A DNA stretch of 29,965 bases from Lama guanicoe (GCA_013239625.1 MU053881.1:16856373-16886337), one strand, 5' to 3'; positions 5,331 through 28,670 are shown, counted from the first letter of the stretch. Made by a program: numbers and translations. Notes: generated by a model from the sequence alone, not told the origin.

Positions 5331-5438
5331 TACCAGGAATAGCCCCTTGGGCAGGGCCAGCAGTGGTGGAAGCTGATGGCTGTCCTCCAGCCAGGAGTTG
5401 ACCACTCCATGTCACACCTCACTTCAGGCACAGCCTCC

Positions 5439-6386
5439 ATGCAGGGAGCCAACCTCTCAGCAGTGACTGAATTCATCCTCATCGGCTTCTCCACCTTCCC
5501 CCACCTCCAGCTGATGTTCTTCCTGCTCTTCCTGCTCATGTACCTGTTCACGCTGCTGGGCAACCTGCTCATCATGGCCACCATCTGGAGCGAGCGCAGC
5601 CTCCACACCCCCATGTACCTCTTCCTCTGCGCCCTCTCCATCTCTGAGGTCTTCTACACCTTCACCATCATCCCACGCATGCTGGCCGACCTGCTCTCCA
5701 CCCACCGCTCCATTTCCATCACTGCTTGTGCCAGCCAGATGTTCTTCTCTTTCATGTTTGGCTTCACCCACTCCTTCCTGCTCACCATCATGGGCTATGA
5801 CCGCTACGTGGCCATCTGCCACCCCCTGCGCTACAACGTGCTCACGAGTCCCCGTGGCTGTGCCTGTCTGGTGGCCTGGTCCTGGGTTGGAGGCTCAGTC
5901 ATGGGGCTGGTGGTGACATCAGCCATTTTCCAGCTCACCTTCTGTGGCTCTAATGTGATCCATTATTTTGGCTGCCACGTGCTACCTCTCCTGAAGTTGG
6001 CCTGTGGGGGCAATGTCTACACAGTGGCCATGGGCGTGGACCTAGTGTGTATCACGGCCTTGCTGGGATGCTGTCTCCTCATCCTCCTCTCTTACGCCTT
6101 CATTGTGGCCACCATCTTGAGGATCCCCTCTGCTGAGGGCCGGCACAAGGCCTTCTCCACCTGTGCGTCCCACCTCACCGTGGTGGTTGTGCACTATGGC
6201 TTCGCCTCCGTCATCTACCTCAAACCCAAGATTCCCCAGTCTCTGGAAGGAGACACGCTGATGGGCATCACCTACACGGTCCTCACTCCCTTCCTCAGCC
6301 CCATCATCTTCAGTCTCAGGAACAAGGAGCTGACGAATGCCATGAGGAAGACCTTCCTCAACAAGCTCTACCCAGAAAAAATGTGA
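5439..6386 (+). CDS. OR10H1: Olfactory receptor, OR10H1/H2/H5-like, 315 aa (MQGANLS...KLYPEKM)
   Basis: Intact ORF with OR motifs GNLLI, LHTPMYLFL, MGYDRYVAICHPLRY, KAFSTCASHL, PFLSPIIFSLRNKE and an N-terminal NLS sequon. Resembles OR10H1 as recalled. ATG 5439 lies 11 nt after a candidate acceptor (cacctcacttcAG, 5426-5427). The ORF track start at 5376 is probably intronic. Confidence 0.93.
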   Translation: MQGANLSAVTEFILIGFSTFPHLQLMFFLLFLLMYLFTLLGNLLIMATIWSERSLHTPMYLFLCALSISEVFYTFTIIPRMLADLLSTHRSISITACASQMFFSFMFGFTHSFLLTIMGYDRYVAICHPLRYNVLTSPRGCACLVAWSWVGGSVMGLVVTSAIFQLTFCGSNVIHYFGCHVLPLLKLACGGNVYTVAMGVDLVCITALLGCCLLILLSYAFIVATILRIPSAEGRHKAFSTCASHLTVVVVHYGFASVIYLKPKIPQSLEGDTLMGITYTVLTPFLSPIIFSLRNKELTNAMRKTFLNKLYPEKM

Positions 6387-8805: not shown

Positions 8806-9756
8806 TCAGGAGCTTAGAGGAGAGAATTTTCTGTGGAAATTTCTCTTTATGGCATTCTTCAGCTCCTTATTCCTGAGGCTGAAAATGATCGGGCTAAGAA
8901 AAGGGGTGAAGACTGTATAGGTGGTGGCCATCAGAGTGTTGCTGTCCATGGAATGGGGGCCCTTGGGCTTGAGGTAGATGATGGAGGCAAAGCCGTAGTG
9001 CACGATCACTATGGTGAGATGGGACACACATGTGGAGAAGGTCTTGTGCCGGCCCTCAGCTGAGGGGATCCTCAAGATGGCGGCCACGATGAAGACATAC
9101 GAGAGGACGATGAGGAATAAACACCCCATCAAGGCTGTGACACAAACCAGAATCACAACCATGGTGAGAGCAGATGTTTCCTTCCCACAAGTCAATTTCA
9201 AAAGAGAAAATACATGGCAGAGGAAATGCTGAATCACATTAGAGCCACAGAAGGTGAGATGAAAAACTATCAATGTCAACATCATCCCCATGACTGAGCC
9301 ATCAGCCCAGGACCAGGACACAAGATGAGCACAACCACCAGGGCTCATGAGCTCGTTGTAGCGCAGGGGGTGGCAGATGGCCACATAGTGGTCATAGCCC
9401 ATGCTCATGAGCAGGAAGGAGTGAGTGAAGCCAAACGTGAAGGAGAAGAACTTCTGGCTGGCATAGGCCACGAAGGAGATGGAGCGGTGGACGGAGAGCA
9501 TGTCGACCAGCATTCGAGGGGTGACAGCAACAGTGAACAGAATCTCGGAGATGGAGAGGGCACACAGGAAGAGGTACATGGGTGTGTGGAGGCTGTGCTC
9601 CCTCCAGATAGTGGCCATGATGAGCAGGTTTCCCAGGAGCGTGAACAGGTACATCAGCAGGTACAGCAGGAAGAAGGTAGGCAGGAGATGCTGAGGGAAG
9701 TTGGAGAAGCCAATGAGGATGAATTCAGACATTGTGCTATAGTTCTGACCAGACAA
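8806..9756 (-). CDS. OR10H4: Olfactory receptor OR10H4/OR10H3-like, copy 1 (open frame but damaged key residues; begins at TTG, predicted exon start 9767)
   Basis: 316-codon open frame with OR motifs. First codon is TTG (plus-strand caa 9754-9756); in-frame ATG at codon 9. C98Y, M102K and DRY>DHY relative to the paralogs in this window. Confidence 0.85.
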   Translation of the reverse strand: MSGQNYSTMSEFILIGFSNFPQHLLPTFFLLYLLMYLFTLLGNLLIMATIWREHSLHTPMYLFLCALSISEILFTVAVTPRMLVDMLSVHRSISFVAYASQKFFSFTFGFTHSFLLMSMGYDHYVAICHPLRYNELMSPGGCAHLVSWSWADGSVMGMMLTLIVFHLTFCGSNVIQHFLCHVFSLLKLTCGKETSALTMVVILVCVTALMGCLFLIVLSYVFIVAAILRIPSAEGRHKTFSTCVSHLTIVIVHYGFASIIYLKPKGPHSMDSNTLMATTYTVFTPFLSPIIFSLRNKELKNAIKRNFHRKFSPLSS

Positions 9757-11159
9757 GGATGCTGCATCTGGTGAGATCAGGAACAGAATGAAAGCACAGT
9801 GGTTAAAACAGAGGTTCTAACATAGATTAAACAGCAGTTGAAGAAGTCTATACTATATAACTATTTGCTTAACTTGTCTGAGTCAAAATCTTCATCAGTA
9901 AGATGGATTAAATCATAGCAGTTCCTACCATTCAGCATTGTGATAAAGATAAAGTGAATCAGTATATTAAGTGCTTAAAACATAATTTGACCACTGGGTT
10001 CTTATTAACAGTGTCAAAAATAAAGAAATGCTCTCATTTTTGAAACCACTAAAAACAGACATGCAAAAGCAAGGTCATATGCTATTGAACAGTGTGCCTG
10101 TTATAGAAAATGTATTTGGATCTTGGGGTTAAAAAATTCCTTCAGCGTCCTGTGTTTAAAGTGATTGTTGAACCCATTACATGTATTTTATTGGTACTCA
10201 TTTATGTCATCTTATTTCATATTTGTATTTATTTATAGTAAAGGAACTGAAGAGAAAGTTTCAAAGTAAAAGGATGGACAAATATATGGTAGGCAAATAT
10301 GTACAAAAGGAAGGCTGAAGCAGCAATCTTCAAAACAGAAAAAAATGAGATTGAAAGAAACAACAATTACAATAACTATATTTCCGTATTCCACTAAAAG
10401 GACCAGTGTTCCTGGAGAGATGGTCTGGGCAAGGAGCACGCCTTGTACATCTTGTGCCAGAGTAAAATAAAACTTTCACTGTAAAAGGTTAATGTTAAAA
10501 GAAGGCGGCAACCGGATTGAAAACGTGTCCATTGGCTTAAGCTGATCATCAAAGCAAATGATCGTTGTACGGATGATGGAGGAGAAAAGTAAATGACACC
10601 ACAAGGAAGCAACTAGGCAAATCCAAAGGTGGAACATTCCACAGAACAATTAATTTAGTCTCATCAATGAGCCAACGTCATGAAAAGAATGACCAGAATT
10701 CCGAGCGACATAACAACCGGATGCAATATAGGGTACCAGATTGAATCTTGATTTAGATAAACCAGCTATAAAGTATTGTTAAAGGAATAGAGACAACATT
10801 GTTTATGATATGAATGAATGATGAGGTATGAATAATATTAAGGGGTTCTTATTTATTTAGTTATTAGTTTTATGTGTGATCATGTTATTTTGGCTGGGAA
10901 GGAAAATATTCTTAGTTTAAGTGCATCCCTGAAATGTACAAATCACACGTGTACGTGTGCCAAGGGACAAAGAGGATTATTTCATACAGGTTAGAAGAAC
11001 ATCGTAGTTTCCATCATAAATACAATTAATCGATGTAACAATATACTCTGGCATATTAAGTAACAAGTAATCGGTACAATTCTAGTGAAAGAGATATAAA
11101 ATAAAAATAGTTAATGAATAATAGACAGATTTAAAAGTTTAGCTAGAAATTTAAATACA

Positions 11160-11952
11160 TGCTATGGAAAACAGTATGTATATTCCTCAAAAAATTAAAA
11201 ATAGAACTATCAGATGATCCAGCAATTCCACTTCTGGGTATATATTAAAAAGGAAACCAAATCACTGTGTGGAAGAGGTATCTGTACCCTTTGTTAATTG
11301 CAGCATTATGGACAATAGTCAAGATATGAAAACAGTCTAAATGCCTATTGACAGATGAATAAAAAAAATGTAACATATATATTGAACATATATAATGGAA
11401 TGCTCCTTGGCCGTAAGAAGGAGATCATGCATTTGCAATGGCTCAGATTGGCCTTGATGGCATCCTGCTAAGTGAAGTAAGTGAGACAAAGACTATATGA
11501 TCTCACGTATATGAAAAAAGTGACATGTGAAAAAAAAAAGTGAATATGAAACAAACAAACCAACCCCAAATCAAAAAAAGACATCTTATTTGTTGGGCTG
11601 TGGGTTGGAGGTTGGTAGGGGAACTGGATGAAGGTGTTCAAAAGGTACAGACTTCCAGCTATACGAGAAGTAAGTCCTGGGCATGTGATGGACAACATGA
11701 TGACTATAGTTAACACTGCTGCATTGTAGATTTGAAAGCTGCTAAGAGAATAGATTCTAAGATTTCTCATCACAAGTAAAGACAACTTTTTTCTTTTTTT
11801 TTTTTGATATCTATATGAGATGATGCATTAACTAAACTTAAATTGGTAATCATTGTGCAACTTATGTAAGTCAAGACATTATGCTATACACCTTAAACTT
11901 ACACAATGTTGTATGTCAGTTACATCTCAATAAAACCAAAAGGGAAAAAAAG
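11160..11952 (+). mobile_element. L1 (L1MA-like) 3' end, specific to unit 1
   Basis: gctatggaaaacagtatg...gatccagcaattccacttctggg...ccttaaacttacacaatgttgtatgtcagttacatctcaataaaa. Not seen at the matching position in units 2 and 3. Confidence 0.8.
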
Positions 11953-11959
11953 AATTCAA

Positions 11960-13560
11960 CTTATGCAATAGTAATTACTACAATGCAATTAATAATATTC
12001 AAACATTAACTGACAAATATTTTTAGACTCCTCAAACAACAGAAATATTTTTTAAGCACTCAGAGGACTCTCATAAAAACTGACCTGACATTAGACATAA
12101 AATAATCTTCCATCAATTCCAAAGTATAAATATTATATGTATTATAATGCACTAAAATTACAATTCAGTAGAGAAGGAATAGCTTTTCAAACCCCACATA
12201 TTTAAGAGCAAAATAATTTAGTAAGCAAACTTTTCTTTCAATGGTAAATCATGAAATAAATTAAGAAATATTTCTAATTAAATAATTTAAGCGTCTCATG
12301 TTAGAAGATCAGGCTAAAATAACATTGAAGGGAAATACACAAGTTTAAATATATTTATCAAGAAATTTTATCCAGAAAAAAATCATGCTTAAAAAAAGTT
12401 AAGTTTAGGTTATCGAAAAAAGATTAATAAGATAGAGAGAAATAAGGAGAAGATACCAATAACAAAATATGAAATTAAAATTGGGGAATAAATGCAACAA
12501 TAATGAGTATTTAAAATTAATTTAAAAATAGTAAGAAAATACACTGACAAATATGAGACTGTAGATGAAATGAATGAATTCTTAGAAGAATATAAAATTC
12601 CAAAACTGACACAAGAAAAAATAGGGGTCCCAGATACATAAATATGTTATTTTTTAATTGAAAGTTTTAGTTATAGACCTTCCTTCTCTATAATCATCAG
12701 CCCCAGTGAGTTTGCAAGTGAGCTCTCCTAAACGTCTAAGGAATAGCTGCTGAGTATCTTACACATGTTGTTCAACAAACAGAAAAATACATGAAGTTGC
12801 CCAGCTCATTTCATTAAGTTGATGTAATCTTGATTCCAACACTAGGTAAGAATATTTGTAAGAAAAAAATAATTATGGGTTCATTTGATCTACCCATGCA
12901 GGTTTTAAAAATCTGTAATAAGACATAACCTAGTAAAATTCTATGGTAATTAAAAACAGTGCATTATGATCATGTAGTTTTGGTTTATCCCATGAATGAC
13001 AAGGATGGTTTAGCATCAGAAAACCTATCATGTGAATCCTTACAGAAACACACTAAAAAAGAAAAATCATATACGCATTTCCTCCAAGGTAGGAATAATT
13101 TTCTAAAATTCAACTCCTACTCATGATTTTCAAAAAAGCCTCTTTGTAGCATGCAGGGAAGGTGACTTTCTTCGCTAGTTAAAGAACACATACCACAAAA
13201 CTGGCAAGTATTATACTAGTTGGGAAACTAGATGCATTGTTTTAGGACCAGGAACAAGCCAAGGATACTCACTGCCTCTGCTGTTCTTTAACACCGAACT
13301 GAAAGTCATGAACGGTGCTAAGGGAAGAAAAAGAAAGAACATGTATAAAAATTGGAAGGGAAGAGAAATTATCATCCACCCAGAAAAGATAAAAGAATTA
13401 GACGAATAAACTAGAACCATAAGACAGCATAAGGCTGCCGAATGTAAGATCAACTTCTGAAAGTCACAGTATTTCTCATAGTATTGCACCAGTAATAATC
13501 ATTCAGAATTTATAACTGGAGTTAAAATTAAGACTCCCAATAGTGACACAAACTATAAAG
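11960..13560 (+). mobile_element. Ancient, degraded L1 ORF2-region fragment shared by all units (paralogs ~18900-22190 and ~28500-29965)
   Basis: A-rich decayed L1 text (gatgaaatgaatgaattcttag, ccaaaactgacacaagaa, caaggatggtttagcatcagaaaa, ggaacaagccaaggata) collinear in the three units. Confidence 0.65.
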
Positions 13561-13564
13561 AGAG

Positions 13565-14030
13565 AGCTTTCAAGCATTTTGGCCTTGGGATCCCATTACA
13601 CGCAAACATTATTGAGGTCCCTAAAAGGTTTTTGTCTGGGTGGATTATAACTATCAATTTTTTACTATATTAGAAATTAAAACTGAGAATCTTTAAAAAT
13701 ATTTAGTCATCAGTACATTTAAAAGAACAATAATAAACCTAGTATATGTTAATATAAGCAACATTTTTAGTAAAGTAACTACATTTTCAAAAAAAACTTT
13801 ATTGAGAAGAGTGGCTTCATTTTTCATTTTTGCAAATATGTCTAATGTAAAGACAACACGATGCTCATGTCTGCTTCTTCACTCAGTCTGTGGCTACATG
13901 TTGTTTTAGTTGACGTGGATGATGAAAAATATCCTCATATGTAATTGGAAGAGTAAGAACCTTGTGGACACCCCAGAAAAGGTCCCAGGGACCCCCAAGT
14001 GTCCTCATATCACACTTTGAAAACCCCTGT
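13565..14030 (+). mobile_element. hAT-Charlie-type DNA transposon fossil (paralog at ~22193-22655)
   Basis: Charlie-like ends (ctttcaagcattttggccttgggatccc ... cacactttgaaaacccctg). Subfamily not certain. Confidence 0.55.
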
Positions 14031-14275
14031 TATAAAATACCTGAGAACTAACAAGAAGCATAAATACCTTCAGAGACCCTGGTCTGAGGACCACTGACAT
14101 AGAAGCCGCAAAGGGCACCTACGCTGGGTGAACACGGGGACCCAGATGGGAAAAATGAAAAGACCCCCGACAGCCTCGAAGGTTGAGATCTTCTCTTACT
14201 ACCCTTCTCCCCAGCCGTGACCCCATTCCCACGCTGGGCAGCACTACCCACAGCTGCAGGATTCTTCCTTCCTAC

Positions 14276-14318
14276 CCTCTCCCTCCTGGTCCCCCTCAGG
14301 CTGGCCTGCCTCTTCCAT
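14276..14318 (-). CDS. Predicted upstream coding exon segment for OR copy 1 (MEEAGQPEGDQEGE + 1 nt)
   Basis: ATG at 14318, 43 nt open, then GTAGGA donor at 14275. Phase 1 matches acceptor CAG|AT GCA GCA TCC TTG at 9768/9767. Conserved in the paralogous unit. Confidence 0.55.
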
Positions 14319-14399
14319 GAAGTGGCCAGCAGAGGAGAGCAGAAGAAACGCTCCTGCTTGATGCTGTCAGCAGTACCCACAGGCGGGGGTGGGTGAGGC

Positions 14400-14770
14400 C
14401 TCCTAGAACGGATACAGTCTGCTTTATCCCTGCTGTATCCTTCCCTGCTGGCTGCTCCCAAGGGCATCTTCAAGATGCTAACCTAAAAGATCCGTCCTCA
14501 GGGTCTAGAGAAGCTGGGAAGGACCTCAAGGGGCTTCAGGGACCTGCTGCCTCTAGACCCTCCCCCAGCCATCCACACAGAAAGACTGTTGCTGCCGCTC
14601 TTCGCCCAGAGAGACTCCAGCCCATGCTGAGGGCTGCAGGGCTCCCAGTTACTGGAGAGACTGAGCTGGACACAGATGCCCTCATTACCTTGGGGCCAAG
14701 GCAGGGTCAGAGGGAAGGTGAGAGCTGGAGGGGTCCCAAGTGGGAACTGAGGGCTCTTCCCTGGGTTGAG
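14400..14770 (-). promoter_or_regulatory. Candidate promoter of OR copy 1 with clustered O/E (EBF)-like sites
   Basis: TCCCAAGGGC 14456-14465, TCCTCAGGGT 14495-14504 and CCTCAAGGGG 14524-14533 are all retained in the paralogous block. Conserved GATAAA on the - strand at ~14422-14428. Confidence 0.45.
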
Positions 14771-14963
14771 AGCAGCTGGAGGACTTCCCAGACAAGGATA
14801 ATTTGGAGCTGGGTCTTACAGACTGGTTTCTTTTGGGCAATATAAGTGTTCAGGTTCTTCTGGCCAATTGGATAGCCTCACCTCTATTCCCAATCAAATT
14901 CTACCCTAACCCCCGTGGTCCTGGTGATCCAGCCAGACAGTCTGACATGCACACATGCCTCCC

Positions 14964-15063
14964 TGTGATATAATAAAACATAAATATTTGGTCTTTTGGT
15001 ATTGCCCTTGGTTCCTGACTCCCTGATAAGAGGGTCTTTTGTAGGCTAATGAGATGACTGATG
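14964..15063 (+). mobile_element. MER21-like LTR 5' fragment (paralog at 25208-25320)
   Basis: tgtgatat...atatttggtctt...gtcttttgtaggctaatgagatgactg resembles the recalled MER21 5' consensus. Confidence 0.55.
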
Positions 15064-16151
15064 CCTGTGAGTTTATCCTTATAAAATATCTCTGCCTCCA
15101 GCTCAATTATTTGGCCTCATCTTTGAGTTAGCAATTTACACTCCACAGAGGGCCCAAGTCCTGGATCCTCACTCATATATTCCAAAAACCAGCATAGGAG
15201 TCAGACAGACATAAAGGTCCATGGGACTCTATTTATTCACATGTTATGTGACCTCCACCTACATTTCCCATCTGCATAATGAAGGTACCCATAGGTAGGT
15301 AACCTCTGATCTCTCTTTGTGCCATCTTGAAATAGCACTCTGCCTTTCAACACACTCCTCAAATAAGTGCAGCTTTAACACAGTAATGAGAAATTGATGT
15401 TTCATTGAAAGTTACATGTTGGAAAAGGGGAAAAGATTTCCGTAAGATGTGAGATAACAACACCCTTTAATATGTCTATGTTCTTACCTAAGCCCTGGTC
15501 CCTCTTCCTTCTCCCAGTCCCTCATCTCTCTCGGTGTCTCTCTTTCTCTCCTCCAAATCACTCTTTCTGTTTCTTTTATATTTTCCCTCCCTTATCTTCC
15601 TTTCTACTTCTTCTTTCTTATATCTCACATGCAAACAGCCTTATAATTAGCAAATGATTTCCTTGGAGACAGATAGCTTATTACTTTTTACATTTGTTAT
15701 AACTAAAAGGATAATTATAAAACACTGGACACAATGCTTGATATGTAGAAAATTCTCAATTCTTGGTGGGTTTTATTATAATTTTATGTCATTTTAATCT
15801 TATATTGGTGAGGGGAGGGGAAAATGAAGTGTTCTCTTGCTTGTCCATTCAGAAAGAACCATGGGCATCAAGGCCAAAACTCATTCACATGATGCTCCTA
15901 CCTGCCCATAGATAAAGTAAATTCTAGAGCATAGATAATAAGATGGAGTTCATCACACTGGGTCATACGTGAGAGATCATGACGGCAAAGGGGTGGCAAA
16001 CAAACTGAGGAAAAACAAATAGATAGTATGCATCAAACTCCTATGAATTGTAGGAATTTTAACACAACTGAAGCCCTACCATAGTTCTATGGAGACAAAT
16101 GTTATTATCTCCAGCCCTTCTATCATATTTTTTCCACCATCAAACTGGCCA

Positions 16152-17267
16152 TTAGTAGCTTAGGGGACAGAATGTTCTGTAGAAGCTTCTCTTTATGGCA
16201 TTCTTCAGCTCCTTATTCCTGAGGCTGAAAATGATCGGGCTAAGAAAAGGGGTGAAGACTGTATAGGTGGTGGCCATCAGAGTGTTACTGTCCATGGAAT
16301 GGGGGCCCTTGGGCTTGAGGTAGATGATGGAGGCAAAGCCGTAGTGCACGATCACTATGGTGAGATGGGACACACATGTGGAGAAGGTCTTGTGCCGGCC
16401 CTCAGCTGAGGGGATCCTCAAGATGGCAGCCACGATGAAGACATACGAGAGGACGATGAGGAGTAAACACCCCAGCAGGGCTGTGACACAAACCAGGATC
16501 ACACCCATGGTGACAGACAATATCTCCTTCCCACAGGCCAACTTCAATAGAGAAAGCACATGACAGACAAAGTGGTGTATCTCATTAGACCCACAGAATG
16601 TGAGATGAAAAACTATCAATGTCAACATCATTCCCATGACTGAGCCACCAGCCCAGGACCAGGACACAAGATGGGCACAGTCACGTGTTCTCATGAGCAT
16701 GTTGTAGCGCAGAGGGTGGCAAATGGCACAGGCAAAATGGTGGATCTCATTAGACCCACAGAAGGTGAGATGAAAAACTATCAGTGTCACCATCATTCCC
16801 ATGACTGAGCCACCAGCCCAGGACCAGGACACAAGACGAGCACAACCACCAGGGCTCATGAGCATGTTGTAGCGCAGGGGGTGGCAGATGGCCACATAGC
16901 GGTCATAGCCCATGATCATGAGCAGGAAGGAGTGGGTGAAACCAAACGTGAAGGAGAAGAACGTCTGGCTGGCACAGGCAGTGAAGGAGATGGAGTGGTG
17001 GATGGAGAGCATGTCGACCAGCATTCGAGGGGTGACAGCAACAGTGAACAGAATCTCGGAGATGGAGAGGGCACACAGGAAGAGGTACATGGGCGTGTGG
17101 AGGCTATGCTCCCTCCAGATGGTGGCCATGATGAGCAGGTTTCCCAGGAGTGTGAACAGGTACATCAGCAGGTACAGCAGGAAGAAGGTAGGCAGGAGAT
17201 GCTGAGGGAAGTTGGAGAAGCCGATGAGGATGAATTCAGACATTGTGCTATAGTTCTGACCAGACAA
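16152..17267 (-). pseudogene. OR10H4: OR10H4/OR10H3-like copy 2, 371-codon open frame with a 55-aa internal tandem duplication (probably non-functional)
   Basis: All OR motifs present. Segment AICHPLRY...IHHFxC occurs twice (16892-16728 and 16727-16563). First codon is TTG (17265-17267). Confidence 0.75.
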
Positions 17268-18437
17268 GGATGCTGCATCTGGTGAGATCAGAAATAGGAT
17301 GAAGGCACAGTGGTTAAAGCAGAGGCTCTAACCTAGATTAAATGCCAATTGAAGACCTCTATATAACTATTAGAAGAAGACTTATAAGTATTTATTTAAG
17401 TTATCTAGTTGTCACAATCTTCATCAGTAAGATGGAGTCAATCATAATTGTTCTTATCATTCAATAATGTGATAAAAATAAAATTAGATCAGTATTTTAA
17501 ATGCTTAAGATACAGTTTGGCTAGTGGGTTTTTATTAATTACAGTGACTAAAAAATTAAAATTTAGCATTTTTGGAGGCACTGAAGACAAACATAGATGA
17601 TCAGGGCCATAATCTCTTGAATAGTGTTCTTGTTCTAGAAAATCTTTATTTGGATCTTGGGGCTCTAAAAATGTTTTCCTCTAAGAGACTTTGTCTTTTA
17701 ATTGATGATTTAACACATTTATCTTTATTTTAACTATTTTAATGCTACACTTTTTTCCGATGTTGTTTCATATTCATATTTACTATTCTAAATTAACTGA
17801 ACAGAAAGTCTGAAAATAAAAGGGTGGAATAATATATGCCAGGAAAAAATGTATCAAATGAAAACTGAGGCAGAACTCTTAAAAACAGACAAAATTAAAT
17901 GCAAGGAAACAATACTTATAACATCTCCATTAACATTTGTCACTCAAAAACATCAGGCTTCTTTGGAGAAATTGTCTAGGGCAGGAAGTAAGCTTAGGAC
18001 ATCTTGTACCAGCATGAAATGAAACTTTAAAGTGAGTAATGGGTTAATGTTAAGTGGATGCCAGGACCAGATTGCAAATATGCCCATTCACCAAAGCTGA
18101 TTGCCAAAATGAAGGATTATGTTACAAAGGATGGAAGAGCAAGCTAAATGACACTATAAGGAAGCAATCAGACAAATCCAAAGATGGAACATGCTGCAGA
18201 ACAATTGGTCTTGTCTCATGGATACCAGGGTGATGGAAAGAATAAGGAGAAATTCAGGAAATATAACAATCAGACGCAATATAGGGTACTAGCTTGGATA
18301 CTGATTAAGATAAAACCAGTGCAAACTAATTTTAAGGCAATAGAAAAAACTTTGATATGGTTTGTATGAATAAGTAGATATGAACAATATGAGATTATTA
18401 TTAACTTAGCTATTAATTTTGAATGTTACCTTGTTAT

Positions 18438-21807: not shown

Positions 21808-23397
21808 AAGAATATGTGCTACAAAACTAGCAGGTAGCTTACTAATGGGGAACTTTTGACGCATTATTTTAGGATCAAGAATCCAAGGTTACTTACTGTC
21901 TAGGCTGTTCTTTAAAATTGAACTGAAAGCCATGAGCAGTGCTCTAAGGAAAGGAAAAGAGAGAAGCTATATAAGGTTGGGAGGGAAGAAACATGGTCAG
22001 GTACCAAGAAAGGGTGAAAGAATCAAGATGTAATATGTTAGAACAAAAAAAAGCACAAAGCTGCGGAAGGCAAACCGACTTCCCCAAAACATAGTATTTC
22101 TCGTGGTATTACGCCAGCAATTATCTCTCAAAACATAGAACTGAAGTTAAGCAGGCGAAGACTCTTAAGAACGATACAAACTGTGAAGTAAAAGCCCTCA
22201 ACCATTTGCTCTTAGGATCCTCTCACAATAAAACACTGAGTTCCCAAAGGGCTTTTGTTTGAAGGGGATCAGAACTATCAATCTTTCCCATTTCAGAAAT
22301 CGAACCTGAGGATCTTTTAAAGGATTTGTATTAGTGTATCTAAAATAACAACAATAAATCTATTACATTTTAATATAGTGACATTTTAAGGAAAGTAATC
22401 ACATTTTCAAATAATAAGTAGTGATAATAGTGGTCCTGTTCTACATTTTCGCAAGTACGTTCCTCGTCTGGCCTGGTGGTAGACGACCTAATGCTGTGTC
22501 TGATTCTCTGTCAGCCTGTGACGGTATGTCGTTTTACTTGACACATGTGACAAAAATATATCCTCACGTGTACTGCCAAGGTAGGGACCTGGTGGACCCC
22601 CAGAAAGAGTATCAGGGAACCCCGGGGGCCTCATATTATATTTTGAAAACCTTTGCTATGAAATATCTAGGATTCAACAACAAACATGCAATACCTCCGA
22701 AGACAAAAAGGTTAGCGAACAATAAAAATGTGGAGGATGATCTGAATACATGGAAGCTGTTTACTTTCCTGGATGGGATGATCTAATATGATAATGGTGT
22801 CACTTCTTCCCCCAAATAACACCATCAGTCCAATTGCATTTACGACTCCAGTGAATGGACTGTAAATTTAGTAACTATCCTAAATTTCCTCTGAAAAATA
22901 AAGTCAGTGCAAAACGATACTCATCTTATCATTATTACTGTGAGCAGGAGAGATTTGTCTTCCCAGGGATTATGGCACATTCTAGAGTCGTAATCATTTT
23001 TAAAAATGTGAAACAGGAACAGGCATAGACATCCATTAAATTGACTGGATATCTCAGAAAATATCTCATTATTATTCATAATGTAATATGTGATAAAGGT
23101 GGCAGCACAAATAAAGGAAAAGACGCATTGTTTCCCAGTTTGTGGTAGGAAAACTGTTCATTTTATGAAGCAAAGTAAATCCGAATTTCTGCCAAAGACC
23201 ACATGCAAAGGTGGAATCCAGATGGATTCAAGACATAAATGTGAAACAAAGTATAAAGTTAATATGAGAAAGTGAAAGAGAATTACTTTGTGGATCTTAG
23301 TAGTGAAGAAGGACTTCCTAAACCAAACTTCTAAAGCACAAACGTTAAGTTGATTTTTAAAAGACATGAAAATGTCAACGTTAAGAATTTCTGTTCC

Positions 23398-23604
23398 TGC
23401 TAACTACTATACGTAGGCTAGATAAACAAGTTGATCCTATATAGCTCAGGGAACTATATTCAATATCTTGTAGTAACCTATAATGAAAAAGAATATGAAA
23501 AGGAATATATGTATGTATCCGTATGACTGAAACATGATGCTGTACACCAGAAATTGACACAACATTGTAAACTGACTATACTTCAATTAAAAATGGAAGA
23601 AAAG
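23398..23604 (+). mobile_element. Short L1 3' end with perfect 14-bp TSD
   Basis: tatagctcagggaactatattcaatatc...actgactatacttcaattaaaaa. TSD AGAATTTCTGTTCC at 23384-23397 and 23605-23618. Confidence 0.88.
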
Positions 23605-24110
23605 GAGAATTTCTGTTCCCCAAAGATATCCTTAATAAAGTTAACAGGCAAATGGAAAACTGGGACAAGATCATTTGCACTGTGTAAAACCGACAAGAGA
23701 ACACTCTGGAGAAGAACAAACAAGAAGAAATAGGACCCTCAATACAGATGTGAATGAAGGATATGAGCAGAAAAGTCGCAGAAGGATTTACTCAGGCAAA
23801 TGAAAGGATGCTCAAAAAAAAAAAGTTGGGGAGATGAATAAAAGCAATGAAATTTTACTGTATATGTATTCAGTTCCCCAGGTTAGAATTGCTTTCTTGA
23901 TGTGCAAATGGGGAGAAAGGAATCCTCCTGCATTGCTGGTGAGAATGTAGAATGGTGAAAATCCAAACTACACCAGCAAATTCATACCATATCATTAAAA
24001 ATTGGTTAAAATCCACAGAAATTACAACACAAAAAGTGAGCCAGAAGGTAAGCTATGGACTTCAGTAATAATAATAGATCTATTTTCTATATAGTAGTGT
24101 GTATCTATAT

Positions 24111-24157
24111 AATACTACTACTACTACTACTACTACTAATAGTAATAATAATAATAA
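24111..24157. repeat. Compound microsatellite (TAC)n(TAA)n
   Basis: aatactactactactactactactactaatagtaataataataataat. Confidence 0.9.
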
Positions 24158-24204
24158 TCTGTAACGGTTCATCAGTTGGAACAAATGTACCACGCTAACA
24201 CATG

Positions 24205-24352
24205 TTTGTACAATATTTAACAGCATCCCTGACATCAGCCATCAGATGTCTGTAGCATCCCCTCCCTCCCACAATCATGACAAGCAAAACTGCCTCCAGA
24301 CATGTCCAAACATCCACTGTGGGGCAGAATGACCCCAGGCTAAGAACCCCTG
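24205..24352 (-). mobile_element. MER20-like fragment
   Basis: cagcatccctg...ctccagacatgtccaaa...ggggcagaat...aagaacccctg is the reverse complement of the MER20 5' half. Confidence 0.65.
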
Positions 24353-24533
24353 ACGCAGAAGCTGCAAAGGGCACCTAGGCTTGGTGAGAACCTGGAAGTC
24401 AGAGGGGTAAACAGAGAAGACCCCCAGCTGCCTCCCAAGCCTGAGATCCTCTCTTCTGGCCCTTCTCCCCAGCCCTGACCCCATCCCCAGGCTTGGCGGT
24501 GCTGCCCACAACCGTATGGTGCTTCCTTCCTAC

Positions 24534-24576
24534 CCTCTCTGTCCTGGTTCCCCTCTCCCTGGCCTGCCTCTTCCAT
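24534..24576 (-). CDS. Predicted upstream coding exon segment for OR copy 2 (MEEAGQGEGNQDRE + 1 nt)
   Basis: ATG at 24576, 43 nt open, GTAGGA donor at 24533. Phase 1 matches the acceptor at 17279/17278. Confidence 0.55.
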
Positions 24577-24679
24577 GAAGTGCCCAGCAGGAAAGGGCAG
24601 AAGGAGCTCTCCTGTTGGATGCTGTCAGCGGTACCCACAGGCAGGTGTGGGATTGGACCTAGGGGCTCCTAGAACTCAT

Positions 24680-24980
24680 CCTGTGTGCTTTATCCCTGCT
24701 GCAGGCTGCCAGCAGGCTGCTCCCTAGGGCCTCTCCAAGACAGCAACCTAGAAGATCTGTCCTCAGGGTCTGGAGAGGCTGGGAGGGACCTCAAGGGGCC
24801 TTTGGGAACTTGCAGCCTCTACTCCTTCCTCCAACTGTCCACACACAACAAAGGTCTCTGGTGTCACCTCTTCCCAGAAAGAACCCAGCCCTTGCTGAAG
24901 TCTGAGGAGCTCCCAGTCTAGGGGGTGGGGTTGGAGGACAGGGCTTGAAATAGATGCCCTTAGTCCCTTGGGGTGTAGGG
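24680..24980 (-). promoter_or_regulatory. Candidate promoter of OR copy 2 with clustered O/E (EBF)-like sites
   Basis: TCCCTAGGGC 24721-24730, TCCTCAGGGT 24760-24769, CCTCAAGGGG 24789-24798 and TCCCTTGGGG ~24964-24973. Paralogous to 14400-14770. Confidence 0.45.
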
Positions 24981-25706
24981 ATAAGGTTAGAGGGAAGGCA
25001 GGAGCTGGAGGAGCCTAGAGTGAGATTCCAGGGCTGGATGGCTTTTCAGAATAAGAGTCATTTGGGACTGGGTCCTGGGGACTGGTTTCTTATGTGCAAT
25101 GTGTCTTCTGGCCAAACTAGACGGCCCCACCTCTCTTCCCAAATTCTGCTCTATTCCTATTGTCCTGGTGATCCAGGGAGACAGTCTGACATTCGCATGT
25201 GCCTCCCTGTGATAAGATGTAACGTAAAACAAACATAAAAAAAATTTGGTCTTTTGGTGGTGTCTTTGGTTCCTGACCCTCTGAAAAGAGTGTCTTTTTA
25301 TGCTAATGAGATGACTGATGACTATGGGTTTATCTTTATGAAATCACTTTTGCCTCCAACTCAAATATTTGGTCTCATCTTTGAGTTAATAGTTAACATG
25401 CCACAAAGGGCCCCCTTCCTGGATCCTCAGTGACATATATTCTCAAACACCAGTGTGGGAGTCAGATAGACCTAAACCTCCTTGTGACTCCCTTCATTCA
25501 CATTTGTGTGACCTCTGCCAACGCTTCTCATCTTCATAATGAAGGGACCATCTCTGACCTCTCTCTGTTCCATATTGAGATAGCACTCTGCCTTTCAACT
25601 CACTCCCCAAACAGCTGCAACTTTAACACAGTAATAAAAATGGATGTTGTATTGAAAATTATGTGTGGGAAAAATGGAAAGGGATTTCAATAAGATGTCA
25701 GCAGCA

Positions 25707-25874
25707 GGGGGGGAGGGTTTAGCTCAAGTGGTAGAGTGTGTGCTTAGCATGCATGAGGTCCTGGGTTCCTTCCCCAGTATTTCCTCGAGAATAAATAAAA
25801 TAAATAATTTAATTAATTAATTAATTAATTAACCTAATTACCGTCCCCCCCGAAACATAACAAAACAAAACAAA
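25707..25874 (+). mobile_element. tRNA-derived SINE (camelid Vic-1-like)
   Basis: G-rich 5' end, A box TAGCTCAAGTGG, B box GGTTCCTTCCC, (TAAT)n tract and (CAAAA)n tail. TSD AAGATGTCAGCAGCA (25692-25706) / AAGATGTCAGTGGCA (25875-25889); empty site near 15443. Confidence 0.85.
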
Positions 25875-26790
25875 AAGATGTCAGTGGCACACTTTTACAT
25901 GCCTGTGTTCTTACCTAAGCACTGACCCCCTCTTCCCTTTCTCTCTCCTCCCTTTCTTTCTTCCCTCTTCCTTCTTACCTCCATCCTCTTCCCTTCTTCC
26001 CCATCCTCATATGCATATTGCCTTAGTACCAACCTCCTTCTCCTTCCTTCCATCTTGCCCAGATTCTGCCCCATATATTTTTTAAATGATCAATTAAATA
26101 ATCAATTAAATGGTCAGATCTCTTTAAAGGACTTTATTCCCCCTAGCCTAGCACTCTCTTGTCTCTCTCTCTCTGTCTCTCTCTCCCTCTTGCTCTCTCT
26201 TCACTTTGCATTCTAACTTCCTTCACCCAGTTCAGCGCAACAGAAAAACTTGCCTTGCAGTCTATAGCTCCAAAACCTAGCACAAAACTGTAAAGAACAC
26301 ACCATTTTCTCTAAGGCAAGAACTTTTTTTTGTACATTTGCTGTAATTAAGATATAATAATAATAAAACATTAGGCACAGTACTTTATACATAAAGACTC
26401 AATTCTGGTGGCACTTATCACTATCCTTGTAATTTTATTCTTATTTTGAGGGGTGGGGGAACGAAGCCTTCTTGTGCTAGTCCATTCAAGAAGAATCATG
26501 TCCATCAGGGGCCTGACACTTCCCTGTGATGCTCTCCACCTGCCTATAGATAGATAATGCATTCTAAGGCACAGATAATGTGATGGAATTCATCTCACTG
26601 GGTAAAAATAAGAGACTTTGATGGCTTGGGCCTATGCAAGAGGGGAAAGCAAGTTGGAGAAAAGCAAACATCTAGTACACATCTAACTCCTATGGAGTGG
26701 AGGTATTTTCGGAGACCTGAATCACCACAAAAGCTGTATGGACACAGACATTATTAAACCCAAATCATCTGTCACATTTCCATGCCACCA

Positions 26791-27741
26791 TCAGGAGCTT
26801 GAGGGACAGAATGTTCTGTGGAAGGTTCTCTTCATGGCATTCTTCAGCTCCTTATTCCTGAGGCTGAAAATGATCGGGCTAAGAAAGGGGGTGAAGACTG
26901 TATAGGTGGTGGCCATCAGAGTGTTGCTGTCCATGGAATGGGGGCCCTTGGGCTTTAGGTAGATCATGGAGGCAAAGCCGTAGTGCACAATCACTATGGT
27001 GAGGTGGGACACACATGTGGAGAAGGTCTTGTGCCGGCCCTCAGCTGAGGGGATCCTCAAGATGGCAGCCACGATGAAGACGTAGGAGAGGATGATGAGG
27101 AATAAGCACCCCATCAGGGCTGTGACACAAACCAGGATGACACCCATGGTGACAGATGATGTCTCCTTCCCACAGGCCAACTTCAATAGAGAAAGCACAT
27201 GGCAGAGAAAATGGTGGATCTCATTAGACCCACAGAAGGTGAGATGAAAAACTATCAGTGTCACCATCATTCCCATGACTGAGCCACCAGCCCAGGACCA
27301 GGACACGAGACGGGCACAGTCACGTGTGCTCATGAGCACGTTGTAGCGCAGGGGGTGGCAGATGGCCACGTAGCGGTCATAGCCCATGATCATGAGCAGG
27401 AAGGAGTGGGTGAAGCCAAATGTGAAGGAGAAGAACATCTGGCTGGCACAGGCAGTGAAGGAGATGGAGCGGTGGGTGGAGAGCATGTCCGCCAGCATTC
27501 GAGGGGTGACGGCAACAGTGAACAGAATCTCAGAGACGGAGAGGGTGCACAGGAAGAGGTACATGGGGGTGTGGAGGCTGCGCTCCCTCCAGATGGTGGC
27601 CATGATGAGCAGGTTCCCCAGGAGTGTGAACAGGTACATCAGCAGGTACAGCAGGAAGAAGGCAGGCAGGAGATGCTGAGGGAAGTTGGAAAAGCCGATG
27701 AGGATGAATTCAGACACTGTGCTATAGTTCTGACCAGACAA
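26791..27741 (-). CDS. OR10H4: Olfactory receptor OR10H4/OR10H3-like, copy 3 (most canonical; begins at TTG, predicted exon start 27752, first exon outside the window)
   Basis: 316-codon open frame with intact ACASQMFF, MGYDRYVAICHPLRY, KTFSTCVSHL and PFLSPIIFSLRNKE. First codon TTG; no in-frame ATG until Met35 in TM1; in-frame TAG a short distance upstream. Confidence 0.9.
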   Translation of the reverse strand: MSGQNYSTVSEFILIGFSNFPQHLLPAFFLLYLLMYLFTLLGNLLIMATIWRERSLHTPMYLFLCTLSVSEILFTVAVTPRMLADMLSTHRSISFTACASQMFFSFTFGFTHSFLLMIMGYDRYVAICHPLRYNVLMSTRDCARLVSWSWAGGSVMGMMVTLIVFHLTFCGSNEIHHFLCHVLSLLKLACGKETSSVTMGVILVCVTALMGCLFLIILSYVFIVAAILRIPSAEGRHKTFSTCVSHLTIVIVHYGFASMIYLKPKGPHSMDSNTLMATTYTVFTPFLSPIIFSLRNKELKNAMKRTFHRTFCPSSS

Positions 27742-28670
27742 GGATGCTGCATCTGATGAGATCAGAAATAGGGTGACGTCACAGCGGCTAAAACATAGGC
27801 TCTAACATAGATTAAATGGCAATTAAGGACCTCCATACTATATGATCTGGCACTATATAAATGTGCCCATAGGCCACAGCTGAGCACCAAAGAGTGATAA
27901 TATGTAGAGGATGGAGTAACTAGCTAGATGACACCATGAAGAAAAATTAGAAAATCCAGAAGGCAAAATGTTCTATAGAACACCTGGTCTGGTCTCATCA
28001 AGTCAGGACGAAGAAGAGGGTGAAGAGGAATTCAAGGGACATAACAACCATGTGCAATATTGGGAATCAGATATTTAGATAAGCTAGTTGTTAAGTAGTT
28101 TTAAGGAAATAGGTAAGATTTTGATTGTGGTATGAATGAATGATGAGTTAAAAATAATATGAAGAGATTATTCTTAATCTAGTTGTTAATTTTAAGTGTG
28201 ATCTTATTATTTTGGCTTTGAAGGAAAGTATTACTAGCTTAAAAGCATATTGAAATTTAAAATGTACACACACATGCACACAACAAGAGACAAAGAAGAC
28301 CATTTTATGAAGATTATTGGAACATTGTACAACCTGCATGAATATAATTAACCTGTAGAACAATATACCCTAGATTATTAGTAATAAATAAAGAACACCA
28401 CTTCTGTGAAACAGATATGAGATAGGAATAGCTAAATCAATACTAGATAGACAGGCTAAAAAGTTGAAATCACAAATTTTAACAGAATTCAGAAATGTAA
28501 TTTGGGAATTATCAGTTATAATACAATTAATAATATTCAGACATTAGCTCCTGGATATAATTGGGCTCCTCTCCAGAGATCAAACATTTTCTTTTCAACC
28601 AGAAAGAGGGGTTTAACAAAATTTGACCTTGTTTTGGACTCAGAGAAATTCCCCATCCACTTTGAAATGT

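Follow-up and report, generated by a model that had tools for sequence, protein, structure and literature searches.

Barnes et al. (2020, PMC7055050) have published 13 human olfactory receptor (OR) genes with a split coding sequence, human OR10H4 among them. The first of their classes consists of loci that had been called pseudogenes for a missing start codon and whose start was recovered in an adjacent exon. In the models given there, human OR10H4 has an 80-nucleotide (nt) untranslated exon, a 1203-bp intron, a 114-nt start exon and a 3367-bp intron; in isoform 2 (ENST00000641275), a split coding sequence of 305 aa, this last intron follows residue 7. In human OR10H3 (ENST00000641646), an upstream exon of 67 nt is followed by a 3330-bp intron, whose acceptor stands exactly 11 nt ahead of the ATG (PMC7055050). 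We compare these genes here with a stretch of 29,965 nt from Lama guanicoe (GCA_013239625.1 MU053881.1:16856373-16886337), referred to below as the window, which is a mammalian OR cluster with four open receptor frames. In the receptor that we call copy 1, the initial annotation of this DNA had noticed a start codon changed to TTG and had proposed for its clade a rescue by an upstream coding micro-exon that opens with an ATG at 14318 and supplies a new leader. We find a split coding sequence to be well supported by the sequence of the whole group, and we place its conserved start at a different ATG, at 13309 in a 45-nt micro-exon, with a probability of roughly 0.6.

Loss of the start codon from the main exon

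Copies 1–3 sit in diverged tandem units on the minus strand. The features of the receptor exons needed here are as follows, with a slash marking splice boundaries throughout.

8806-9756, minus strand: receptor frame of copy 1, open
8806-9767, minus strand: main (last) exon of copy 1 to its stop; acceptor CAG at 9770-9768, stop at 8808-8806, seven-transmembrane frame open
9765-9767, minus strand: out-of-frame ATG at the acceptor of copy 1, opening a 37-codon frame that overlaps the receptor frame
16152-17278, minus strand: main exon of copy 2; TTG at 17267-17265, frame 16152-17267
26791-27752, minus strand: main exon of copy 3; TTG at 27741-27739, frame 26791-27741
5439-6386, plus strand: OR10H1-like gene with a normal ATG and an in-frame upstream extension from 5376

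The Pfam family 7tm_4 is matched by copy 1 (E = 5.5e-49), copy 3 (E = 8.2e-53) and, in two stretches, copy 2 (E = 2.3e-51). The relatives considered here are 166 annotated proteins that were retrieved, and conserved columns were taken from a set of 141 relatives. Among named relatives, those nearest to copy 1 are annotated as OR10H3-like or OR10H4-like and come from camels, pig, cattle and cats, with 81–91% identity, and copy 3 is 95.6% identical to P0004. We class the minus-strand copies as class II olfactory receptors of family 10, subfamily H (OR10H3/4-like).

Copy 1 reads CAG/ATGCAGCATCC followed by TTG at 9756-9754, its first exonic base being 9767, and the plus-strand paralog reads CAG/GCACAGCCTCC followed by ATG. 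The spacing from the acceptor is 11 nt in both, and re-reading the minus strand bore out the initial annotation on this comparison. The ancestral ATG has given way to TTG in copies 1, 2 and 3, whose first 35 bases from the acceptor are identical, and TTG is also found at the start position of three more distinct paralogs in the genome (copy 0, which lies just outside the window, L033 and the triplet L028-30). Upstream of the acceptor the frame is open for 20 codons and contains no ATG in copies 1–3. A start by read-through of the intron was rejected on this ground; the read-through models annotated in pig, cattle and cat have no counterpart here.

Initiation within the main exon itself, either at TTG as a near-cognate codon or at the next ATG (Met9, 9732-9730), would leave the upstream exons purely untranslated. 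UUG can act as a weak start codon, Met9 is present in copies 0, 1 and 2, and several database models of 308–310 aa (P0027, P0028, P0031 and others) begin there. We nevertheless consider such a start very unlikely. The Met9 codon is GTG in copy 3, L033 and L034, and valine occupies the position in most relatives; copy 3 and L033 have no in-exon ATG before the first transmembrane helix (TM1). An NYS glycosylation sequon lies upstream of Met9 and is kept in every copy, and a start at Met9 would remove it. The TTG has T at both −3 and +4, and the serine codons found at the start position in cattle and sheep and the tryptophan codon found there in horse cannot initiate. A scanning ribosome would moreover meet up to three AUGs earlier. 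One of these, the out-of-frame ATG at the acceptor, is kept in copies 0–3 and L033 and would capture ribosomes that had not yet initiated upstream, which makes initiation downstream of the splice site unlikely.

The frames of copies 1–3 are under purifying selection, the ratio of non-synonymous to synonymous substitution rates (dN/dS) being 0.23–0.36 at dS of 0.12–0.22. Taken together, the TTG, the lack of an upstream in-frame ATG, the loss of the sequon from Met9, the trap set by the acceptor ATG and the purifying selection indicate that these receptors are unreadable as single-exon genes, and that their start must come from an upstream exon joined through the acceptor at 9767. The gene models of other mammals show the same loss in different guises. 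The residue at the start position is leucine in camel, pig, bison and donkey, serine in cattle and sheep, valine in dog, seals, fox and tiger, tryptophan in horse, and methionine in other cat models and in primates, and in the models of camel, cattle, sheep, pig, horse and dog the frame is intact despite the non-ATG state. Several separate losses of one codon, each with the frame left intact, fit a gene that already possessed an in-frame upstream AUG.

A candidate start exon of 45 nt

By chance alone one expects to find an upstream ATG that is in frame and has a passable donor. Within the 5.9 kb upstream of the acceptor (9768-15650) we counted 122 ATGs and 134 pairs of ATG and donor with an open frame and the GT in phase 1. 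Donors were scored with a crude position matrix, not with MaxEntScan or SpliceAI, and three pairs, 14318, 12091 and 9938, reach at least 6.07, the score of the 14318 donor; 13309 falls just under at 5.97. At three to four such pairs per 5.9 kb, only conservation can single one out.

13317-13273, minus strand: micro-exon of copy 1 (exon 2), 45 nt; ATG at 13309-13307, reading MTFSSVLKNSRG plus the first base of a split codon; donor A/GTGAGT
21897-21941, minus strand: homolog of the micro-exon in copy 2; ATG at 21933, reading MAFSSILKNSLD; donor A/GTAAGT
L007: homolog of the micro-exon, leader MTFSSMSKNSRD
L008: homolog of the micro-exon, leader MTFSSMLKNSRD
L009: homolog of the micro-exon, leader MTFSSMLRNNRD, with a weaker donor, GTGACT; part of a pseudogene
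9929-9938, minus strand: chance candidate, ATG CTG AAT G/GTAGGA, encoding MLN and part of a split codon; 161 nt separate it from the acceptor downstream
12091, minus strand: candidate of 7 nt, donor CAGGTCAGT

The micro-exon is preceded by a nearly pure polypyrimidine tract ending in TTAG, after which come 8 nt and the ATG; this codon and the eleven that follow it, MTFSSVLKNSRG in all, leave one base before GTGAGT. Joined to 9767, the end of the micro-exon at 13273 gives a phase-1, in-frame junction with asparagine from the split codon and 332 open codons. The ATG, the length of 8 + 37 nt and a GT donor are kept in all five paralogs (copy 1, copy 2, L007, L008 and L009). In copy 2 the acceptor is ambiguous (TTAG/AG/), the exon being 47 nt long if the first AG is used. 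The intron upstream of the micro-exon spans 958 nt (14276 to 13317) and that downstream of it 3505 nt (13273 to 9767).

Two other possibilities in this region were rejected. The leader at 9938 is identical to that of the Bactrian camel gene model P0002; as the start of the group it fails, since ATG and GT are both missing from copy 2 and L034, the ATG from copy 0 and the GT from L028, and since copy 3 and L033 are without the whole region. A longer micro-exon of 138 nt, with the AG at 13412-13411 as acceptor, also keeps the reading frame of copy 1 open; it was set aside, as its extra in-frame ATGs fall in stretches where the paralogs carry insertions and deletions.

Annotated relatives

The leader of the micro-exon is matched in 11 of the 166 relatives, from artiodactyls, carnivores and primates. 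Leader and junction are both identical in eight of these protein models, which span three orders: dromedary P0001, sheep P0025, yak P0029, dingo P0041, pig-tailed macaque P0043, lemur P0057, owl monkey P0060 and slow loris P0083. The remaining three, the primate models P0095, P0097 and P0100, join the leader to an internal acceptor. Two of them, P0097 and P0100, are OR10H4 proteins of baboon and gelada with 305 aa, and their MLKNSRD before the junction is the leader of the window's micro-exon, which ties exon 2 of human OR10H4 to it. The camel and yak models start at the ATG of the micro-exon and not further 5'.

These matches bear on what had been claimed for the locus. The coding sequence split at the 9767 acceptor is supported. 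The new acidic leader is not: none of the 166 relatives begins with MEEA, and it is the micro-exon, which had been missed, that supplies the leader found in the models. Nor is the arrangement new or peculiar to one clade, with OR10H4 among the 13 published human split genes and two-exon models annotated from camel to lemurs. The warning that single-exon annotation would mislabel such genes was justified, as P0058, P0086, P0088, P0099 and P0101 are truncated models of 279–282 aa that start inside TM1.

The region around 14318

14276-14318, minus strand: stretch from ATG to donor, 43 nt, reading MEEAGQPEGDQEGE plus 1 nt; donor GAGAGG/GTAGGA, GT at 14275-14274
24534-24576, minus strand: homolog in copy 2, reading MEEAGQGEGNQDRE; 43-nt length and donor unchanged
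14422-14465, minus strand: promoter-like elements; an O/E-like site with one mismatch at 14465-14456 and an ATAAAG box at 14427-14422

Reading the minus strand confirmed that the ATG at 14318 opens 43 nt up to a phase-1 donor, with the exon ending at 14276. Joining the coordinates 14276 and 9767 gives 334 open codons in frame, with the N-terminus as first described and NYS retained. Three of four distinct homologs, copy 2 and the orphan contig C2199 among them, preserve the ATG, the length of 43 nt and the donor; the fourth, L005, which lies upstream of the pseudogene L028, keeps the donor and has TTA for ATG. A further copy, L002, duplicates the copy-2 region at 99.5% identity and was left out as non-independent. 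Conservation among paralogs raises the 14318 site above the chance level.

In a manual count, the changes among paralogs in the codons of this stretch are about 12 non-synonymous to 1 synonymous, and the surrounding island of sequence is conserved as highly beyond the donor as before it. The near absence of synonymous changes together with the conservation past the donor gives the stretch the look of a promoter-proximal first exon and not of a constrained coding exon; it is probably not the conserved coding micro-exon and most likely lies inside the first exon.

The O/E-like site and the ATAAAG box are located 138 nt and about 105 nt upstream of 14318, respectively. An O/E-like site is placed homologously in copy 2 (24730-24721), and the box is invariant in the three aligned paralogs. 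Young et al. (2011, PMC3247239) found the 200 bp preceding the transcription starts of OR genes to be enriched in O/E sites, and a subset to have TATA boxes. Across the window, O/E-like sites number 7 against 9.9 expected by chance; this count is not above chance, and the sites gain weight only from the homologous placement of two of them 5' of first exons. Copy 1 has no further ATG between the box and 14318, which would make 14318 the first AUG of the mRNA if transcription starts about 30 nt past the box. A scan of metagenome contigs with the core of the first exon and a degenerate version of it gave 0 matches to orthologous first exons.

The direct junction 14276>9767 could still be the main form of the transcript, with a start at 14318 and an 18-residue acidic leader. 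It has the open frame and the conservation described above on its side, as well as the position of 14318 as the first AUG past the putative promoter elements. Skipping can occur in micro-exons of 45 nt whose end departs from the consensus, as GCA/GT does in the one at 13317-13273. Yet this exon, lying between the two sites, is well formed, with its polypyrimidine tract and GTGAGT, and its counterpart is included in the human OR10H4 model. The absence of MEEA from the relatives, the ratio of about 12 to 1 in the codon changes and the conservation that runs equally past the proposed donor also speak against the direct junction, and we regard it as improbable.

A third possibility is that all three exons are coding. 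The length of 45 nt is divisible by three, which keeps the ATG at 14318 in frame through the micro-exon as well. Translation from it would extend the protein by 33 residues ahead of the start position, and alternative N-termini would arise through leaky scanning to 13309 and through skipping of the symmetric micro-exon. This frame has 349 open codons in copy 1 and is also open in copy 2 if the second AG is used, and the micro-exon length of 45 nt is found in four of five paralogs. The O/E-like site and ATAAAG box at homologous places in the paralogs fit OR promoters (PMC3247239), with no other ATG between the box and 14318 in copy 1. Against it, use of the first AG in copy 2 stops the frame from the first exon after 24 codons, L005 has lost the ATG and kept the donor, the codons of the first exon are free of amino-acid constraint, the camel and yak models begin at the ATG of the micro-exon, and the position of the transcription start is only guessed. 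We rate three coding exons as rather unlikely, and with the same reserve we consider that one gene may give three N-termini by this route (full, micro-exon-skipped and micro-exon-started). If this were true, the upstream frame would have permitted the repeated loss of the in-exon ATG (to TTG, TCG, GTG and TGG) across Laurasiatherian lineages.

Proposed transcript

From the observed sequence features, the conservation among paralogs, the purifying selection and the agreement with annotated and published models, we infer how these genes would be spliced, where transcription would start and which AUG would be used. In this tandem array of OR10H3/4-like genes the ancestral start of the main exon has turned into TTG, and an upstream exon would provide the AUG for translation of the receptor frame. 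The transcript would most likely comprise three exons, namely a promoter-proximal exon ending at 14276, the micro-exon 13317-13273 and the main exon from 9767. The phase-1 donor of the micro-exon and the first two bases of the main exon would form the split codon, so that a leader of 13 residues precedes AASLSGQNYS and the sequon is kept. The ATG at 14318 in the first exon could contribute about 17 extra residues if transcription starts upstream of it, and skipping of the micro-exon would give the product originally proposed.

Integrity of the receptors and evidence against a start at 13309

Several observations weigh against the proposed start at 13309. A search for RNA evidence yielded 24 runs, and no RNA run among them contained more than 0.20 of the sampled words. 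The codons of the micro-exon are only mildly constrained, with about 8 non-synonymous to 4 synonymous changes among the five paralogs (manual count), and its identity of 80% between copies 1 and 2 is unremarkable beside that of the flanking sequence. Neither the ATG at 13309 nor that at 14318 has a purine at −3; by the Kozak rule, a missing purine at this position makes a weak start. The leaders of the annotated relatives are heterogeneous, with at least five unrelated kinds, which suggests that many of them are guesses of the prediction programs, and the recurrent leader could have been spread by homology-based annotation. The equivalence of the window's exons with the human exons, too, is drawn from their spacing and from monkey protein models and not from an alignment of DNA.

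The state of the receptors themselves is a further difficulty. Copy 1 departs from 6 of the 185 columns that are at least 90% conserved in the 141 relatives, as compared with 1 of 185 in copy 3 and 2 of 185 in L033. The substitutions in copy 1 include C98Y, at the cysteine of the third transmembrane helix (TM3), R123H, which turns DRY into DHY, and G152D, at a conserved glycine. The DRY arginine is present in 134 of the 141 relatives, and copy 3 and L033 keep both it and the TM3 cysteine. In class A receptors, changes of the C98Y and R123H type should impair folding and G-protein coupling. The substitutions probably cripple copy 1, which we would call a family member by descent and a doubtful receptor; its intact frame may be without function. 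In copy 2 a stretch of 165 nt is duplicated in tandem and in frame (16563-16727 and 16728-16892), which lengthens the protein by 55 residues; copy 0 has a frameshift, and L028-30 and L034 are broken. Part of the array, on this evidence, is decaying. The two units of the copy 2 duplication are 90% identical and cover the DRY/TM4 region; the frame remains open (371–374 aa) and the Pfam match is split in two.

These defects lend some weight to the idea that copy 1, and perhaps the whole TTG group, are young pseudogenes that give no functional protein, their upstream ATGs being coincidental and their open frames persisting through recency or gene conversion. The departures of copy 1, the 55-residue duplication of copy 2, the broken copies and the three to four in-frame pairs of ATG and donor expected by chance per 5.9 kb would all fit. 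The selection acting on the frames would not, with dN/dS at 0.23–0.36 for dS up to 0.22; nor would copy 3 and L033, which are intact at 184 and 183 of the 185 conserved columns, respectively, the recurrence of the non-ATG state with intact frames in the models of camel, cattle, sheep, pig, horse and dog, or the retention of NYS upstream of Met9 in every copy. We consider this explanation unlikely. The unblemished carriers of the main-exon architecture are copy 3 and L033.

Other features of the window and its surroundings

The last position of the window, 29965, is the end of contig C1866, an assembly break 2.2 kb upstream of copy 3, and the upstream exons of copy 3 fall beyond it. The orphan contig C2199 (3221 nt) carries only the first-exon island, which could belong to copy 3 or to L033.

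Elsewhere in the genome, L028, L029 and L030 (G000:C7075:1410817-1415705) are three identical receptor 5' ends spaced at 2.3 kb, each with an in-frame TAG in place of the glutamine of FPQ. They represent either a pseudogene fragment repeated in tandem or an artefact of the assembly. L002 (G000:C7075:1406179-1409342) matches window positions 22988-26151 (L003) over 3.2 kb at 99.5% identity, which points either to a segmental duplication of very recent date or to the separate assembly of a second haplotype.

The plus-strand OR10H1-like gene has in-frame ATGs 5' of its canonical start (5376-5438), and the alpaca OR10H1 model P0160 (325 aa) begins at the matching extension MSHLTSGTAS. Two O/E-like sites with one mismatch each lie on the plus strand 3.4–4.2 kb upstream of this gene, at 1219-1228 and 2075-2084, and may mark its promoter region.

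Comparison with known split receptor genes

Counts of functional ORs come mostly from searches for single-exon open frames, and such a search would call the OR10H3/4-like group pseudogenes or truncated genes. The conserved micro-exon offers a rule for annotating OR10H3/4-like genes in artiodactyls, carnivores and horses, in which an upstream start that is optional in primates would have become obligatory. As the principle was published in 2020 with human OR10H4 listed, the value of the present analysis is that of a corrective annotation and not of a discovery.

The closest counterparts among gene models are the two-exon predictions P0001, P0029, P0025 and P0041, in which, as in the window, the leader is joined before AAS(L/S/V)SGQNYS and the old start is not methionine. 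They are automatic predictions whose sibling models use unrelated leaders or read through the intron, and we take them as leads and not as proof.

Human OR10H4, as modelled by Barnes et al. (PMC7055050), belongs to the same subfamily and shares with the window a three-exon layout, a small start exon about 1.2 kb on from the first, a phase-1 donor and an intron of about 3.4 kb; the corresponding spacings in the window are 958 nt and 3505 nt. The split isoform differs in that its acceptor lies 55 nt inside the coding exon, the glycosylated N-terminus is lost and a single-exon isoform coexists with it. In the window genes the acceptor is 11 nt before the old start and the N-terminus is retained; with TTG in place of the ATG, a single-exon form is impossible. 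Human OR10H3 resembles the window genes in having an acceptor exactly 11 nt before the start position and an intron, of 3330 bp, leading from a small upstream exon (PMC7055050). Unlike the window genes it retains the ATG, which accounts for the upstream exon being annotated as untranslated; the macaque OR10H3-like model P0043 reads the leader in frame.

The first class of Barnes et al. (for example Olfr104-ps, Olfr1174-ps, OR5D3P and OR4F5; PMC7055050) is like the window in having an obligatory two-exon coding sequence, with a first coding part of 1–13 residues and an intron of a few kb placed in the extracellular N-terminus. Those cases rest on RNA-seq and on conserved orthologous starts and junctions, whereas the junction in the window is a prediction and is accompanied by an extra in-frame ATG in the first exon. 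By their sequence, the genes of the window are further members of this published arrangement, in which an upstream start that is optional in primates is here obligatory.

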